This document shows, piece by piece, positions 13,917 through 26,732 of a DNA stretch of 64,000 nucleotides (its first letter is position 1; each line of letters opens with the position of its first letter). The position numbers were made by a program, and so were the translations under genes. The stretch lies in assembly GCF_058153355.1 (NCBI RefSeq), contig NZ_CM177019.1; one strand, given 5' to 3'. Under the pieces are notes generated by a model that had not been told where the DNA came from, made no database searches, and saw only the letters and a program-made list of their open reading frames with translations.

Positions 13917-15119
13917 TCAGGACGACTTCGCTGCAATCAAATCCTGCGCACAAGCCCACGCACTCGACCACGCCCACTGGAAGTTATAGCCTCCCAGCCA
14001 ACCAGTGACGTCCATCACTTCACCGATGAAGTACAGCCCAGGCACTTTACGCGCTTCCATCGTCCGTGAAGAGAGTTCGTTGGTATCCACGCCGCCGAGC
14101 GTCACTTCGGCAGTGCGATAGCCTTCAGTGCCGTTCGGCTGCACACGCCAGTCGGTCAATGTGCTAATCAGTGCCTGTTGGTCACGTACGTTGAGCTGTT
14201 TTAGCGAGACATCCGGGATTTGCCCGAGTTGTTGTAAGCGTTCAACCAACCGCTTCGGTAGATGAACCGCCAGTGTGTTTTTCAGGCTCTGATTCGGATG
14301 TGCGTTACGCTGTTCATTCAGGAAGGTTTCGAGGTCCACATCCGGTAGCAGATTAATGCTGACAAATTCACCCGGTTGCCAGTAGCTGGAAATCTGCAAC
14401 ACTGCCGGTCCAGACAAGCCGCGATGGGTGAAGAGTAAGTTCTCACGGAAAACGGTGCCGTTTTCAGCCGTAATCACGGAAGGTACCGCCACACCCGCCA
14501 GCACCTGTAACTCCTCGAGCAACGGTTTATGCAAAGTGAATGGCACCAGACCCGCGCGGGTCGGCAGCACGTTGAGGCCAAATTGTTCGGCAATCTTATA
14601 ACCAAACGGCGATGCCCCCAGCCCCGGCATTGACAGCCCACCGGTCGCGATGACCAGTTTTTCGCTACCGACGGTCATGCCATTCAGTTCAAGCGTGAAG
14701 CCTGTTTCATCCTTCGCCACACTCAGCACTTCACTTCGCAATCTGAAGGTCACATTGCCCTTCTCGCACTCAGCCACCAGCATGTCGACAATCTGCTGCG
14801 CGGAGTCATCACAGAAGAGTTGCCCTAACGTTTTCTCGTGCCAGGCAATGCCGTGTTTATTGACCAGATCAATGAAATCCCACTGAGTAAAACGTGCGAG
14901 TGCAGACTTACAAAAATGCGGATTCTGGCTCAGATAAGCGCCTGGTTCGACAAAAAGGTTGGTAAAGTTGCAGCGCCCACCGCCAGACATGAGGATTTTG
15001 CGCCCTGGTTTTTTACCATTATCGATCAGCAGAACCCGGCGTCCTGCCTGACCTGCCAGCGCAGAACAGAACATACCCGCCGCACCAGCGCCTATAATAA
15101 TGGCATCAAACCTTTCCAC
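13917..15119 (-). CDS. yhiN: FAD-dependent oxidoreductase YhiN (HI0933-like flavoprotein)
   Basis: 400-aa ORF with an N-terminal dinucleotide-binding fold (IIGAGAAGM). Confidence 0.9.
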   Translation of the reverse strand: MERFDAIIIGAGAAGMFCSALAGQAGRRVLLIDNGKKPGRKILMSGGGRCNFTNLFVEPGAYLSQNPHFCKSALARFTQWDFIDLVNKHGIAWHEKTLGQLFCDDSAQQIVDMLVAECEKGNVTFRLRSEVLSVAKDETGFTLELNGMTVGSEKLVIATGGLSMPGLGASPFGYKIAEQFGLNVLPTRAGLVPFTLHKPLLEELQVLAGVAVPSVITAENGTVFRENLLFTHRGLSGPAVLQISSYWQPGEFVSINLLPDVDLETFLNEQRNAHPNQSLKNTLAVHLPKRLVERLQQLGQIPDVSLKQLNVRDQQALISTLTDWRVQPNGTEGYRTAEVTLGGVDTNELSSRTMEARKVPGLYFIGEVMDVTGWLGGYNFQWAWSSAWACAQDLIAAKSS

Positions 15120-15350
15120 GTTGCGCTCCTCTAAGAAAAAACGGGCGTGAATTGTAAAGATTCCTCAGTGGTCGCACCAGCATCAATATTACTAAAAGGA
15201 AGTATTTGCCTGAATTATATAAGATAATTATTTTTTGAGTGCAATCTATACAGGAGGCAAATCAAAAAAAGTCTATATTTCACTTTGCCCGCGCCGCGAA
15301 AGTCACTGATAATGCGCCGCGTTCATGTCCTCAAAATGGCGTAACGTCCT

Positions 15351-16850
15351 ATGCTACATTTGTTTGCTGGCCTGGATTTGCATACCGGGCTGTTATTATT
15401 GCTTGCACTGGCTTTTGTGCTGTTCTACGAAGCCATCAATGGTTTCCATGACACAGCCAACGCCGTGGCAACCGTTATCTATACCCGCGCGATGCGTTCT
15501 CAGCTCGCCGTGGTTATGGCGGCGGTGTTCAACTTTTTGGGTGTTTTGCTGGGTGGTCTGAGTGTTGCCTATGCCATTGTGCATATGCTGCCGACGGATC
15601 TGCTGCTTAATATGGGATCGTCTCATGGCCTTGCCATGGTGTTCTCTATGTTGCTGGCGGCGATTATCTGGAACCTGGGTACCTGGTACTTTGGTTTACC
15701 TGCATCCAGCTCTCATACGCTGATTGGCGCGATCATCGGGATTGGTTTAACCAATGCGTTGATGACCGGGACGTCAGTGGTGGATGCACTCAATATCCCG
15801 AAAGTATTAAGTATTTTCGGTTCTCTGATCGTTTCCCCTATTGTCGGCCTGGTGTTTGCTGGCGGTCTGATTTTCTTGCTGCGTCGCTACTGGAGCGGCA
15901 CCAAGAAACGCGCCCGTATCCACCTGACCCCAGCGGAGCGTGAAAAGAAAGACGGCAAGAAAAAGCCGCCGTTCTGGACGCGTATCGCGCTGATCCTTTC
16001 CGCTATCGGTGTGGCGTTTTCTCACGGCGCAAATGATGGTCAGAAAGGCATTGGTCTGGTTATGTTGGTACTGATTGGCGTCGCGCCAGCAGGCTTCGTG
16101 GTGAATATGAATGCCACTGGCTACGAAATCACCCGTACCCGTGATGCCATCAACAACGTGGAAGCTTACTTTGAGCAGCACCCTGCGCTGCTGAAACAGG
16201 CTACCGGTGCTGATCAGTTAGTACCGGCTCCGGAAGCTGGCGCAACGCAACCTGCGGAGTTCCATTGCCATCCGTCGAATACCATTAACGCGCTCAACCG
16301 CCTGAAAGGCATGTTGACTACTGATGTGGAAAGCTACGACAAGCTGTCGCTTGATCAACGTAGCCAGATGCGCCGCATTATGCTGTGCGTTTCTGACACT
16401 ATCGACAAAGTGGTGAAGATGCCTGGCGTGAGTGCAGACGATCAGCGCCTGTTGAAGAAACTGAAGTCCGACATGCTTAGTACCATCGAGTATGCGCCGG
16501 TGTGGATCATCATGGCGGTCGCGCTGGCGTTAGGTATCGGTACGATGATTGGCTGGCGTCGTGTGGCAACGACTATCGGTGAGAAAATCGGTAAGAAAGG
16601 CATGACCTACGCTCAGGGTATGTCTGCCCAGATGACTGCGGCAGTGTCTATCGGCCTGGCGAGTTATACCGGGATGCCGGTTTCCACTACCCACGTACTC
16701 TCCTCTTCTGTCGCGGGGACGATGGTGGTAGATGGCGGCGGCTTACAGCGTAAAACCGTGACCAGTATTCTGATGGCCTGGGTGTTTACCCTTCCGGCTG
16801 CGGTACTGCTTTCCGGCGGGCTTTACTGGCTCTCCTTGCAGTTCCTGTAA
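15351..16850 (+). CDS. pitA: Low-affinity inorganic phosphate transporter PitA
   Basis: 499-aa polytopic membrane protein with the PiT-family GANDGQKG motif. Confidence 0.9.
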
Positions 16851-17095: not shown

Positions 17096-18272
<1,177 letters not shown>

Positions 18273-19533: not shown

Positions 19534-19559
19534 TCTTCCCTCCACGACGTGTGCCTGAA

Positions 19560-19589
19560 CGCCCGCATATGCGGGCGTTTTGCTTTTTG
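19560..19589 (+). terminator. Rho-independent terminator of uspA
   Basis: GC hairpin cgcccgcatatgcgggcg followed by a T-run. Confidence 0.8.
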
Positions 19590-19637
19590 GCGCGCCTTGT
19601 TACCTGATGCAGCGTATACGCCTTATCTGGCCTACGA
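19590..19637 (+). repeat. REP-like element downstream of uspA
   Basis: …gatgcagcgtatacgccttatctggcctac resembles the REP consensus. Confidence 0.6.
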
Positions 19638-19638
19638 G

Positions 19639-21996
19639 TGCGACAAGAAGTCGTCCAACATATTGTTTTGATAAATTATTTATATAAAACCAACTATTCC
19701 ATTAGTTGTAGCCTACTGAGGCAGGCAAAGCTGGTAACGGCTCTGTCTGAAGCCCTTGGGACAATGTAGCTTAGCAAATATTGCTTCAGTTAATCGTGAG
19801 AAAACCTGATCGCTACAAGCATCATGCGGCGAGAGCGCTAGGCTGGGCGGTATGGTTAACATAGTGAACTGTCGTTAAACGTCGTAACAGAGAACGAGCC
19901 AAAGATGCTGATAGGCTTGCACCAAAAGGTAAGGGGTAAGGCTATTCCTGTTCGTAGTGGGAATACATGGACAATAACTCCCCCGGCGGATAGACAGAAC
20001 CTAACCCGTTCTTTGTATGTTGGTCGGAACTTGGTAAGCCCGAATTCTCGCCCTAGTGGCAGGGGCACCGTAAGGCAAACTGATGAGAATGCGGGTAAAG
20101 GAGGATGGAAAAAGCGAAAGCCGGACTGTAATCGTGCGGATAGAGGTTCAATATTTGCCTTAACGGGAAACCGTGCTGACTTCCATCTGGTCTTTAATTG
20201 CGAAACATCTGCGAAGGTTTCTTTGGATGACATGTATGAAAATTACATCTAACAATGTAACTGCGGTCATCAACGGAAAAGGTTGGCATTCCATTAACTG
20301 GAAGAAATGCCATCAACACGTTAAAACCATACAGACAAGAATCGCAAAGGCGGCATGTAACCAGCAATGGCGTACAGTCGGTAGATTGCAACGATTGCTG
20401 GTTCGCTCATTCAGCGCCAGAGCACTGGCGGTGAAACGAGTTACGGAAAATAGCGGGCGTAAAACCCCCGGAGTTGATGGTCAAATCTGGAGTACTCCAG
20501 AATCAAAATGGGAAGCGATATTCAAACTCAGGCGAAAAGGGTACAAGCCCCTACCGCTAAAAAGAGTTTTTATACCCAAATCTAATGGCAAGAAAAGACC
20601 ATTAGGAATCCCCGTCATGCTTGACAGGGCAATGCAGGCCCTGCATCTGCTGGGATTGGAGCCTGTATCGGAAACTAATGCAGATCACAACAGTTATGGT
20701 TTCAGACCAGCGCGATGTACGGCTGACGCCATTCAACAGGTATGTAATATGTATAGTTCCCGGAACGCCTCGAAATGGGTTCTGGAAGGCGATATTAAAG
20801 GATGCTTTGAACACATTAGCCACGAGTGGCTGCTTGAAAATATTCCTATGGACAAGCAAATACTCCGTAATTGGTTGAAAGCCGGGATCATCGAAAAAAG
20901 CATATTCAGCAAAACTCTCTCGGGTACACCCCAGGGAGGAATCATATCTCCAGTTCTGGCAAACATGGCCCTGGATGGACTGGAAAGACTGCTGCAAAAT
21001 CGCTTTGGTCCGAAACGCTCAAAAACATTCAGGAAACATCAGGTTCACTTCGTCCGGTATGCTGATGATTTCATCATTTCCGGAAAGTCGAAAGAACTTC
21101 TGGAGGAGAATGTTCTTCCGTTGGTGAAATCATTTCTTGCAGAAAGAGGGCTGACGTTATCCGAAGAGAAAACGGTCATCACTCACATTACTGACGGATT
21201 TGATTTCCTTGGGCAGCACGTCCGACGCTTCGGTAGAAAACTCATAATCAGACCAGCCAAGAAAAACGTTAAACAATTTCTTAGCAAGATCAGAGAGACT
21301 ATTGAAGGTAACCGAACGGTTCCTGCATGGGTGCTAATAAATCTGCTTAATCCAATCATCACCGGGTGGGCAAACTATCACCAACATGTAGCATCGGCAG
21401 AGACATTTAACTATGTCGACAACCAAATCTGGCGCAAAATCTGGCAGTGGTGCAGAAGGAGACATCCCGGCAAAGGCCGGAGATGGATCTTCCGAAAGTA
21501 CCACACGACAATAAAAATGTGTCATGGTCGATTTTATGGAGTCGATCCGGAGGGTAGGAAATATGTTCTGTCCCGGGCCAGCGACATCCATATTAATCGC
21601 TATATAAAAATAAAGGGAACGGCAAATCCATATGATCCCGAGTGGGAAACATACTTCGAAAGAAGGCTGGACTACTCATGGAAGAAATCCCAACAGGGGC
21701 AGAAAAGGATTCTCGCTATATGGAAAAGGCAAGGATCGCGCTGCCCTTTATGTGAGCAACCGATTAATCGCGATACAGGATGGAATGTTCATCATTTGCT
21801 CAAGAAATCTCTTGGCGGTAGCGATGATGTGAGCAATTTAGTCCTACTCCATCCCAACTGCCATCGACAACTACATAGTAATGACGCTGGTCTCCCACAA
21901 GGTGGAGGCTTATAAAGGCTTGAGCGGTATGCGGGGAAACTCGCACGTACCGTTCTTAGGGGGCGGCGAGACAGTAATGAATCGCTGCTACCCGAC
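19639..21996 (+). mobile_element. Group II intron (about 2.36 kb) with an intron-encoded protein in domain IV; boundaries inferred
   Basis: Starts GTGCG right after the REP; about 590 nt of non-coding structured RNA (domains I-III); 580-aa RT/maturase/HNH ORF; domain V-like hairpin gagcggtatgcggggaaactcgcacgtaccgttc (21922-21955) 7 nt after the ORF stop; domain VI-like stem with a bulged A at about 21990. Confidence 0.8.
20227..21915 (+). CDS. Group II intron-encoded protein: reverse transcriptase, maturase (X), DNA-binding and HNH endonuclease domains
   Basis: RT motifs (RPLGIP, GFRP, SGTPQGGIISP, YADDFII), maturase motif GWANYHQH, C-terminal HNH (CPLCEQPI…HHLLKK…HPNCH); start could be ATG 20227 or 20236. 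Confidence 0.85.
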   Translation: MTCMKITSNNVTAVINGKGWHSINWKKCHQHVKTIQTRIAKAACNQQWRTVGRLQRLLVRSFSARALAVKRVTENSGRKTPGVDGQIWSTPESKWEAIFKLRRKGYKPLPLKRVFIPKSNGKKRPLGIPVMLDRAMQALHLLGLEPVSETNADHNSYGFRPARCTADAIQQVCNMYSSRNASKWVLEGDIKGCFEHISHEWLLENIPMDKQILRNWLKAGIIEKSIFSKTLSGTPQGGIISPVLANMALDGLERLLQNRFGPKRSKTFRKHQVHFVRYADDFIISGKSKELLEENVLPLVKSFLAERGLTLSEEKTVITHITDGFDFLGQHVRRFGRKLIIRPAKKNVKQFLSKIRETIEGNRTVPAWVLINLLNPIITGWANYHQHVASAETFNYVDNQIWRKIWQWCRRRHPGKGRRWIFRKYHTTIKMCHGRFYGVDPEGRKYVLSRASDIHINRYIKIKGTANPYDPEWETYFERRLDYSWKKSQQGQKRILAIWKRQGSRCPLCEQPINRDTGWNVHHLLKKSLGGSDDVSNLVLLHPNCHRQLHSNDAGLPQGGGL

Positions 21997-24487: not shown

Positions 24488-26530
24488 TCAGCCCTTAATG
24501 CCGTAGTGCTCCAGCATCGCATCCAGTTGCGGTTCACGACCACGGAAGCGTTTGAACAGATCCATCGGCTCTTCTGAACCACCACGGCTCAGAATGTTGT
24601 CGAGGAACGACTGTCCGGTTTCACGGTTGAAAATGCCCTCTTCCTCAAAACGCGAGAAGGCATCTGCCGCCAGCACATCAGCCCACAGGTAGCTGTAGTA
24701 ACCTGCCGCATAACCACCAGCAAAGATGTGGCTAAATGCATGTGGGAAGCGGCCCCAGGACGGAGACGGTACCACGGCAACCAGTTTCTTGATTTCTGCC
24801 AGAGTTTCGAGGATTTTCGCCCCCTGATCCGGACGGAATTCTGCATGTAGACGGAAATCGAACAGGCCGAACTCCAGCTGACGCAGAATAAACAGCGCCG
24901 CCTGGTAGTTCTTCGCCGCCAGCATTTTATCCAACAGTTCTTTCGGCAGCGGTTCGCCAGTCTCATAGTGACCGGAGATAAACGCCAGCGCCTCCGGCTC
25001 CCAGCACCAGTTTTCCATAAACTGGCTCGGCAGTTCGACCGCATCCCACGGTACCCCGCTGATCCCGGATACACCGGCGGTTTCAATGCGGGTCAGCATA
25101 TGATGCAGACCATGACCGAACTCGTGGAACAGCGTGATTACTTCGTCATGCGTAAACAGCGCCGGTTTACCATTCACCGGGCGGTTGAAGTTACAGGTCA
25201 GATACGCGACCGGTTTTTGCAGCGAACCGTCGGCTTTACGCATCTGGCCTACGCAGTCATCCATCCACGCCCCGCCGCGCTTGTTTTCACGGGCATACAG
25301 GTCGAGGTAGAAGCTGCCGCGCAGTTCGTTGTTCTCGTCATACAGTTCGAAGAAACGGACATCCGGATGCCAGACATCAACATCTTTGCGCTCTTTGGCT
25401 GTGATGCCGTAAATACGTTTCACCACTTCAAACAAGCCGTTAACCGCTTTGTTTTCCGGGAAGTACGGACGCAGTTGTTCGTCGCTGATGCTGTAGAGGT
25501 GCTGTTTTTGTTTTTCGCTGTAGTACGCAATATCCCACGGCTGCAACTCATCGACGTCAAATTCGGCTTTGGCGAAGGCGCGCAGTTGCGCCAGCTCTTT
25601 TTCGCCCTGCGGACGTGCGCGTTTTGCCAGATCGGTTAAGAAATCAAGCACCTGCTGCGGGTTCTCCGCCATTTTGGTAGCCAGAGATTTAAAGGCGTAG
25701 TTTTCAAAGCCCAGCAGTTGCGCCAGTTCGTGACGCAGAGCGAGGATCTCTTCCATCACCTTGCTATTGTCCCACTTACCGGCGTTCGGGCCTTGATCGG
25801 AAGCGCGGGTGCTGTAAGCGCGATACATCTCTTCACGCAAGGCCTGGTTGTCGCAGTAGGTCATTACCGGCAAATAGCTTGGGATATCCAGCGTCAGCAA
25901 GTAGCCTTCCAGTTCTTTCGCTTCGGCCTGGGCTTTTGCCGCCGCCAGCGCGCTTTCTGGCATACCCGCCAGTTCCGCTTCGTCGGTAACGAGTTTGGTC
26001 CAGCCCATCGTCGCATCAAGGACGTTGTTGCTGTACTGGTTGCCCAGTTCGGAAAGACGGGTAGCAATTTCGCCGTAGCGTTGCTGTTTCTCTTTCGGCA
26101 GACCGATGCCAGAGAGTTCAAAATCACGCAGGGCGTTATCAACCGCTTTCTTCTGCGCCGTATTCAGCGTGGCGTAATGATCGCCATCGCGCAGATCGCG
26201 GTACGCTTTATACAGCCCTTCATGTTGCCCTACCCAGGTGCTGTATTCCGACAGCAGTGGCAGGGTTTGTTCGTAGGCTTCACGCAGTTCCGGGCTATTT
26301 TTCACCGAGTTCAGGTGGCTGACCGGGGAGAAGATACGCCCCAACACATCGTCCACTTCCGCCAGCGGCTGGCAGAGATTTTCCCAGGTGTACGGTGCCC
26401 CTTGCGCTACTACGCGCTCCACATTTTCACGGCAGTCATTCAATGCCTTCGTCACGGCTGGAACCACATGTTCCGGGAGAATTTTAGAAAACGGAGGCAA
26501 TTCAAAGGGAGTCAGTAACGGATTCGTCAT
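24488..26530 (-). CDS. prlC: Oligopeptidase A (PrlC/OpdA), M3 zinc metallopeptidase
   Basis: 680-aa product from [19 protein letters not shown] zinc-binding motif present. Confidence 0.9.
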
Positions 26531-26732
26531 TAGCGCAGTCCTGGTTAAAGAGGTTAAGGAAGCGCTCAACAGGCGCTTTACATAATGTGTGTAGCATGGG
26601 GTTAAGTGTAGTGAATTTCAATGAGAAACGTTACGCTTTCGCGGCAACGGCCTCTTTTCGGTATACTGTCCTGATAGGCTTTTGTGCGCCCCGAATACGG
26701 GCCGATTTTTACTTACCGGAACACCTTTACCC

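Follow-up and report, generated by a model that had tools for sequence, protein, structure and literature searches.

The window analysed here, a stretch of 64,000 nucleotides from contig NZ_CM177019.1 (RefSeq assembly GCF_058153355.1), carries a complete group II intron in the spacer between uspA and dtpB. From 5' to 3' on the + strand, this spacer holds the intrinsic terminator of uspA (19557..19590, a 10-bp stem and T tract found by a terminator scan), which lies upstream and is unaffected by the insertion; a repetitive extragenic palindromic (REP) element (19603..19635), which is likewise intact; and the intron itself (19638..21996), 2,359 nt long and inserted 48 nt 3' of the terminator. 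The REP consists of a degenerate hairpin (19603-19630) followed by a CCTAC tail, and its 3' arm is the intron target; besides the DNA fold, it is recognised by a weak naRNA4/REP-type Rfam match on the minus strand and by a 16-mer common to Y-type REPs in other Enterobacteriaceae. The intron is sense-oriented downstream of the uspA terminator and interrupts no known gene. The only annotated feature touched is a RefSeq hypothetical protein of 17 aa, MVLNVVLAGDFDCVRRS, encoded on the opposite strand across the insertion point (minus strand 3533-3586 of the corresponding locus, L005; leftwards from 22044 in the window), the end of which is altered by the intron to ...RRVG*, with the last residue changed.

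The boundaries of the element were read directly from genomes in which it is absent, together with full-length plasmid copies that are 97-99.6% identical. When the 539 bases ending at 19638 were compared with complete E. coli genomes, 5,422 of 5,426 gave a match, stopping at 19637, so that the GTGCG of the intron begins at 19638, one base earlier than the original prediction had placed it. The ends, GUGCG and ...CCCGAC, are of the conserved GUGYG (5') and AY (3') types. In E. coli Z0117EC0005 the intron-less spacer measures 317 bp (the prediction had given about 318 bp) and its empty site reads ...ttatctggcctacga|tctgcgtacgc...; the flanks in the window match it base for base and meet with no nucleotide lost and no target duplicated. 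The insertion is thus scarless, as had been proposed from the length of the spacer. By exact-protein look-up, no other insertion in the uspA-dtpB spacer was found.

Both the RNA and the protein of the element are those of a group II intron. The proximal part of domain I (19690..19837, +) is matched by Rfam RF02012, group-II-D1D4-7 (112.5 bits, E 9.3e-24), and a stretch covering domains V and VI (21920..21996, +) by RF00029 (65.5 bits; gathering score, 40). Domain V (21922..21955, +) is further supported by a plastid domain V model and by folding. Domain VI (21959..21993, +), delimited by Rfam and the fold, carries a branch-point adenosine, A21990, 7 nt from the 3' splice site, which is the single bulged A of the structure formed by domains V and VI together (-40.2 kcal/mol, z = -5.2). 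For domains I-III, an alignment of the window intron with six relatives, among them the E. coli intron EcI5 and others whose identity falls from 97% to about 65%, yielded an RNAalifold consensus of 173 pairs, of which 62 show compensatory changes. The domain V hairpin, the following stem with its bulged A and the foldable domains I-III anticipated in the original prediction are therefore all present, and about 600 nt of noncoding RNA precede the open reading frame.

That reading frame is intact and full length in the window copy. The intron-encoded protein is given here as 559 aa (20236..21915, +), with alternative in-frame starts at ATG 20227 and GTG 20173, and annotated homologues begin at ATG 20236 (559 aa) or ATG 20227 (562 aa). 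The 580-aa frame reported earlier does exist, as the mechanical maximum from GTG 20173; it is not the form in which the homologues start, and no exact match to it occurs in the protein collection. The domain set named in that report is confirmed, with RVT_N at residues 17-98, the reverse transcriptase (RT) domain (RVT_1, with YADD) at 113-329, maturase X (GIIM) at 345-422 and HNH at 503-548, and the protein passes the NCBIfam equivalog model for group II RT/maturases, TIGR04416, with 369.5 bits against a cut-off of 300. A retron, diversity-generating retroelement (DGR), abortive-infection (Abi) or Drt reverse transcriptase was considered and rejected: the best non-intron models reach 19-51 bits against cut-offs of 200-600, and the ribozyme domains are present.

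The element is a complete group II intron; its RNA belongs to subgroup IIB1, and its RT-maturase-HNH protein is chloroplast-like (CL1-type). The CL1 label is drawn from its neighbours and is best taken as probable. The closest solved structure is the Th.e.I3/T.el4h ribonucleoprotein (RNP) from Thermosynechococcus (PDB 6ME0/6MEC; chain 6ME0_C, E 2.4e-187 over residues 15-551), a IIB intron RNP with an endonuclease (En) domain that uses the EBS2a-IBS2a contact between exon-binding site (EBS) and intron-binding site (IBS) (PMC8643678). It is cyanobacterial and thermophilic and has another target, and homology to it is at the level of the family. EcI5, a IIB1 intron with a CL1-lineage RT (PMC8643678), was located on plasmid pO157, where its exons reproduce the published C-18, C-17, A-15, A-14 and T+5. 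It has in common with the window intron an EBS1, a 5-nt EBS2, the EBS2a triplet, domains V and VI and the RT-X-HNH layout, and its domain I-III RNA aligns with many compensatory pairs. It differs in its exon-binding sites and in its home, upstream of a DUF1281 gene. The suggestion that the intron might be EcI5-like consequently holds at the level of the class, whereas identity with E.c.I5 is ruled out by 53% protein identity, a patchy DNA match and different exons. The common ltrA intron of enterobacterial plasmids (pMS10495C, L155) is also of this class and plasmid-borne, with 60% protein and about 66% full-length DNA identity; its EBS1 is GCGCAC, and it has another target, outside hok.

On IncF plasmids the intron has its natural home in type I toxin genes of the hok family, at their 3' end and behind the codons for ...AYE. 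A megablast search of the 5,426 complete E. coli genomes found no chromosomal copy and full-length copies in two, both on plasmids, and the plasmid collection contains 20 full-length relatives. The closest, on E. coli pRHB33-C08_2, is 99.6% identical; others on E. coli and E. albertii IncF plasmids are 97-98% identical, and those on Salmonella, Citrobacter and Enterobacter plasmids 77-80%. All plasmid relatives examined occupy the 3' terminus of a hok-family gene, within the IncF leading or maintenance region (home loci L001-L004, L009-L030, L156 and L157), and joining of the exons restores the frames ...AAFMAYE|SGK* (hok) or ...VQVTLAYE|ARK* (srnB-like). In metagenomes, a scan for the intron 5' end returned five contigs, of which four have the intron at hok and none has it in a REP; the site in the fifth is unassigned. 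In the closest plasmid variant the protein carries Q555*, which costs the last five residues past the HNH domain, and the srnB-like host gene of this same copy appears frameshifted near ...VLCF|SLIF... (L001, 2830-3000). Two Logan contigs with an intron identical to that of the window break at the common 12-mer (L006, 1-12) or at the intron ends (L007), as expected if the samples hold at least two copies with different flanks.

Two subtypes of the intron can be distinguished, and the differences between them locate the bases that read the target. Subtype A, that of the window copy, combines EBS1 UCGUAG and EBS2 CAGAG with a srnB-like home 5' exon (...aaCTCTGgcCTACGA), while subtype B combines EBS1 UCGUAA and EBS2 CAUGA with a hok exon (...tTCATGgcTTACGA). 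When exons are matched to subtypes, CTACGA/CTCTG for A versus TTACGA/TCATG for B, the four differences are compensatory and thus fix EBS1 at 19952-19957 and EBS2 at 19888-19892. One of them is the G/A at 19957 that covaries with C/T at exon position -6; the other three lie in EBS2. EBS1, together with delta (U19951), forms a hairpin loop (19951..19957, +), and EBS2, together with EBS2a (A19886), occupies 19886..19892 (+). According to PMC8643678, the nucleotide triplet that precedes EBS2 in IIB1 introns has EBS2a at its centre, pairing with exon position -14. The UAA triplet found here aligns with UUA in EcI5, and the columns give U for EcI5, in agreement with its published U-A(-14) pair, and A19886 for the window intron. 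EcI5 served for the EBS2/EBS2a register; its EBS1 fits its exon imperfectly, with 5 pairs that include 2 wobbles. A candidate EBS3 (U19991), with delta' (A19992), lies in an internal loop 3' of helix ID(iv) (19991..19992, +) and has moderate support: in the hok-intron family the U faces an A at +1, and a G faces a C at +1 in L155 and, when the loop is left-justified, in EcI5, so that the covariation across the three lineages hinges on the alignment of this loop.

On the exon side, the target at uspA (19624..19637, +) comprises IBS2a T19624 (-14), IBS2 ATCTG at 19625-19629 (-13 to -9) and IBS1 CTACGA at 19632-19637 (-6 to -1), with IBS3 at +1 of the 3' exon (21997). Pairing of the intron with this 5' flank, which the original prediction had proposed to look for, amounts to 6/6 for EBS1-IBS1, 4/5 for EBS2-IBS2 (mismatch at -13) and an A-T pair for EBS2a-IBS2a, in total 11/12. 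The srnB-type home site likewise totals 11/12, with 6/6, 5/5 and an A.A opposition at EBS2a. Over the 12 nt that precede the intron, tctggcctacga, which come from the 3' arm and tail of the REP, the uspA site and the srnB-type home exon agree at every base. The REP would have been entered because its tail matches the sequence that the intron recognises in a plasmid toxin gene.

The same target is repeated elsewhere. Y-type REPs that close with the 16-mer cttatctggcctacga are present in genomes of Escherichia, Citrobacter and Pseudocitrobacter, and four Escherichia genomes contain at least 5, 3, 2 and 1 target 16-mers, respectively; these counts come from a scan of genome contigs in which the matches listed were mostly chance ones outside Enterobacteriaceae, and are lower bounds. 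At a second locus, the spacer between tRNA-Leu and rsmC, an intron with one synonymous nucleotide difference occupies a site that is empty in KE55 (gcgtcttatctggcctacga|agggct). It is antisense to both neighbours, which indicates that orientation is not dictated by host transcription. At a third locus the plasmid variant follows aacgccttatctggcctacga between genes for a Na/H exchanger (ybaL-like) and a PfkB kinase (gsk-like), in two assemblies. Three chromosomal loci, two donor variants and one motif are therefore on record, and we conclude that ectopic retrotransposition into this REP subfamily is recurrent and proceeds by sequence mimicry. An unoccupied copy of the 12-nt target with one mismatch (at -1), TCTGGCCTACGC, is found in the window outside REPs, at 25243-25254 (+), within a prlC-like open reading frame (24488-26569, minus strand). 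Subtype-B copies also occur at two non-hok sites: after caatcatggttaacga, adjoining a fragment of a second RT gene and IS66 (L010, 1457-3815), and after ...cgttgatggcttacga (L033, about 1998). We regard these as further ectopic events.

The position just behind a palindrome invites another explanation, in which the intron, in the manner of class C (IIC) introns, would read the terminator or REP stem-loop as single-stranded DNA and insert immediately after it. The ribozyme of IIC introns is short (about 400 nt), and they too are found in intergenic regions just after a palindrome or terminator. They have neither EBS2 nor an En domain and read the hairpin (PMC3522654). All three chromosomal sites do lie 6-7 nt past a REP palindrome, the one at uspA 48 nt past the terminator as well, and the position of the uspA insertion behind terminator and REP had suggested a class C preference at the outset. 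Membership of class C is rejected, however, by the covarying EBS2, the HNH domain and the length of RNA before the open reading frame; the post-palindrome position is the only point of agreement. Nor does structure-directed targeting suit the sites. The hok home is not a REP, and IBS2 forms part of the REP stem, in its 3' arm, so that pairing requires the stem to melt. The hairpin at uspA does not surpass shuffled sequence (-3.6 kcal/mol, z = -1.0) and is weak beside the strong hairpins of the other two loci (-10 and -11 kcal/mol). Hairpin strength thus varies across the three sites and what they have in common is sequence, not structure; the 12-nt identity with the home exon fully explains them. 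For an intron of IIB1 architecture we consider targeting by structure highly improbable.

The reading that we favour, with a probability of roughly 0.85, is that an intact mobile IIB1 intron moved from its hok-family home to the uspA REP by ectopic retrotransposition, using a look-alike of its target. The donor would be an intron copy in a plasmid hok-family gene. Its excised lariat-protein particle would meet a chromosomal REP bearing tctggcctacga, and the RNA would pair with it through EBS1, EBS2 and probably EBS2a. Reverse splicing would then place the RNA in the top strand directly after base 19637, with DNA copying to follow, presumably through cleavage of the bottom strand by the HNH domain and target-primed reverse transcription. 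We take the order of these steps, the use of the endonuclease and the activity of the window copy from the established retrohoming pathway of IIB1 introns (EcI5, Th.e.I3), and the near-identical copies at several sites bear on its retromobility. Ectopic retrotransposition to home-site look-alikes is a known mechanism (reviewed in PMC3522654). Ll.LtrB and RmInt1 likewise reach non-allelic, home-like sites, mainly via IBS pairing (PMC3522654); they are IIA and IIB3 introns that were studied experimentally, whereas the evidence here is comparative and the target is a repeated element.

Several points weigh against this reading. The donor plasmid lies outside the window, and splicing and movement of the window copy are only probable, by analogy with the IIB1 pathway. 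The GC skew, a weak signal, hints that the + strand, in which the intron lies, is the leading-strand template; this suggests a position that fits endonuclease-dependent insertion without proving it. The EBS2a rule is not clean at the home sites of the family itself, where the opposition is A.A (srnB-type) and G.U or G.A (hok-type), and the -14 pair at REPs may be coincidental. Finally, the base at +1 is T at uspA and A at every other insertion site examined, so that the proposed EBS3, U19991, would mismatch and the second splicing step, exon ligation, may be inefficient. No convincing promoter of the intron's own was found, and with the element downstream of the uspA terminator its transcription would need read-through.

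A rival reading takes the REP subfamily to be a genuine second homing niche, to which subtype A would be adapted through the A of EBS2a, which pairs with T-14 of the REPs and not with A-14 of srnB. Such a niche would accord with the occupation of three REP loci by two intron variants, with the equal pair totals (11/12) at REP and srnB sites and with the number of target 16-mers in the four Escherichia genomes. Yet the 5,426 complete genomes contain no chromosomal copy, IBS3 is mismatched at uspA, and subtype B mispairs at -14 at home too, so that EBS2a pairing looks unselected in the family; we think an adapted niche of this kind unlikely.

A further possibility is that the intron reached its place in the sequence passively, through an assembly mis-join across a repeated intron or through import by recombination, with no local retrotransposition. 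Joins of this type do occur. In a draft assembly (L018; GCA_042204225.1, contig ABUXTC010000036.1) a plasmid SMC/srnB 5' flank is joined through the intron to the chromosomal gsk-side 3' flank, either because two copies collapsed during assembly or because plasmid and chromosome recombined through their intron copies. At uspA, by contrast, the flanks are the two halves of one spacer with a base-perfect join in intron-less genomes, and import would still need an earlier retrotransposition at the same site. We give this explanation almost no weight, and retain ectopic retrotransposition from the toxin-gene home as the account of the locus.

The surroundings hold a second mobile element. A 326-aa open reading frame (17096-18076, minus strand) is essentially identical to the transposase of IS621, a bridge-RNA recombinase of the IS110 family (PDB 8WT6, E 5e-219). 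This copy adjoins uspB, 1.5 kb from the intron, at a place where the reference strain has no insertion sequence (IS), and with the REP-inserted intron it makes two mobile elements within 3 kb. IS621 itself inserts into REPs. It belongs with IS1397 and, in Pseudomonas, ISPa11, for which REP targeting is cited in the literature, to the ISs that likewise use REPs as dispersed harmless landing sites; these are DNA transposases or recombinases, whereas the intron is an RNA-guided retroelement that matches one REP variant only. The low G+C content of 4001-16000, upstream of the IS621/uspB region (0.42-0.47 versus about 0.50-0.57 in the surroundings), suggests that this part is an island acquired horizontally.

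A survey of Enterobacteriales places the group II introns of E. coli in IS elements, Rhs elements and plasmids, with hok and REP unmentioned (PMC3522654). Our literature search for a group II intron together with hok, srnB, ltrA or REP, which reached few subscription journals and did not extend to the intron database of Zimmerly, returned nothing relevant. The plasmid copies are routinely annotated as ltrA. We have accordingly found no earlier description of this lineage, of its hok home or of its REP targets, while the mechanism was already known and the understanding of how such introns work is unchanged. What sets the lineage apart from described E. coli introns is that its home is the coding end of a toxin gene and that it has reached the core chromosome via a REP variant. 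The hok/srnB home raises the question of whether toxin expression, and killing, depends on splicing. The covarying EBS/IBS subtypes offer a natural retargeting series for a relative of the EcI5 targetron, and the REP insertions a natural example of a 12-nt RNA-guided specificity finding off-target 'safe harbours' in repeated DNA. It is possible, and we put it forward tentatively, with the odds somewhat against it, that an En-bearing IIB1 intron of hok-family genes has begun to treat REPs of the variant ending in …cttatctggcctacga as landing pads dispersed over the chromosome. In that case the intron could pass from plasmids into the core genome, where each genome would offer several harmless sites, and its copies would create homology between plasmid and chromosome that could drive recombination, for which the L018 chimera may be compared.

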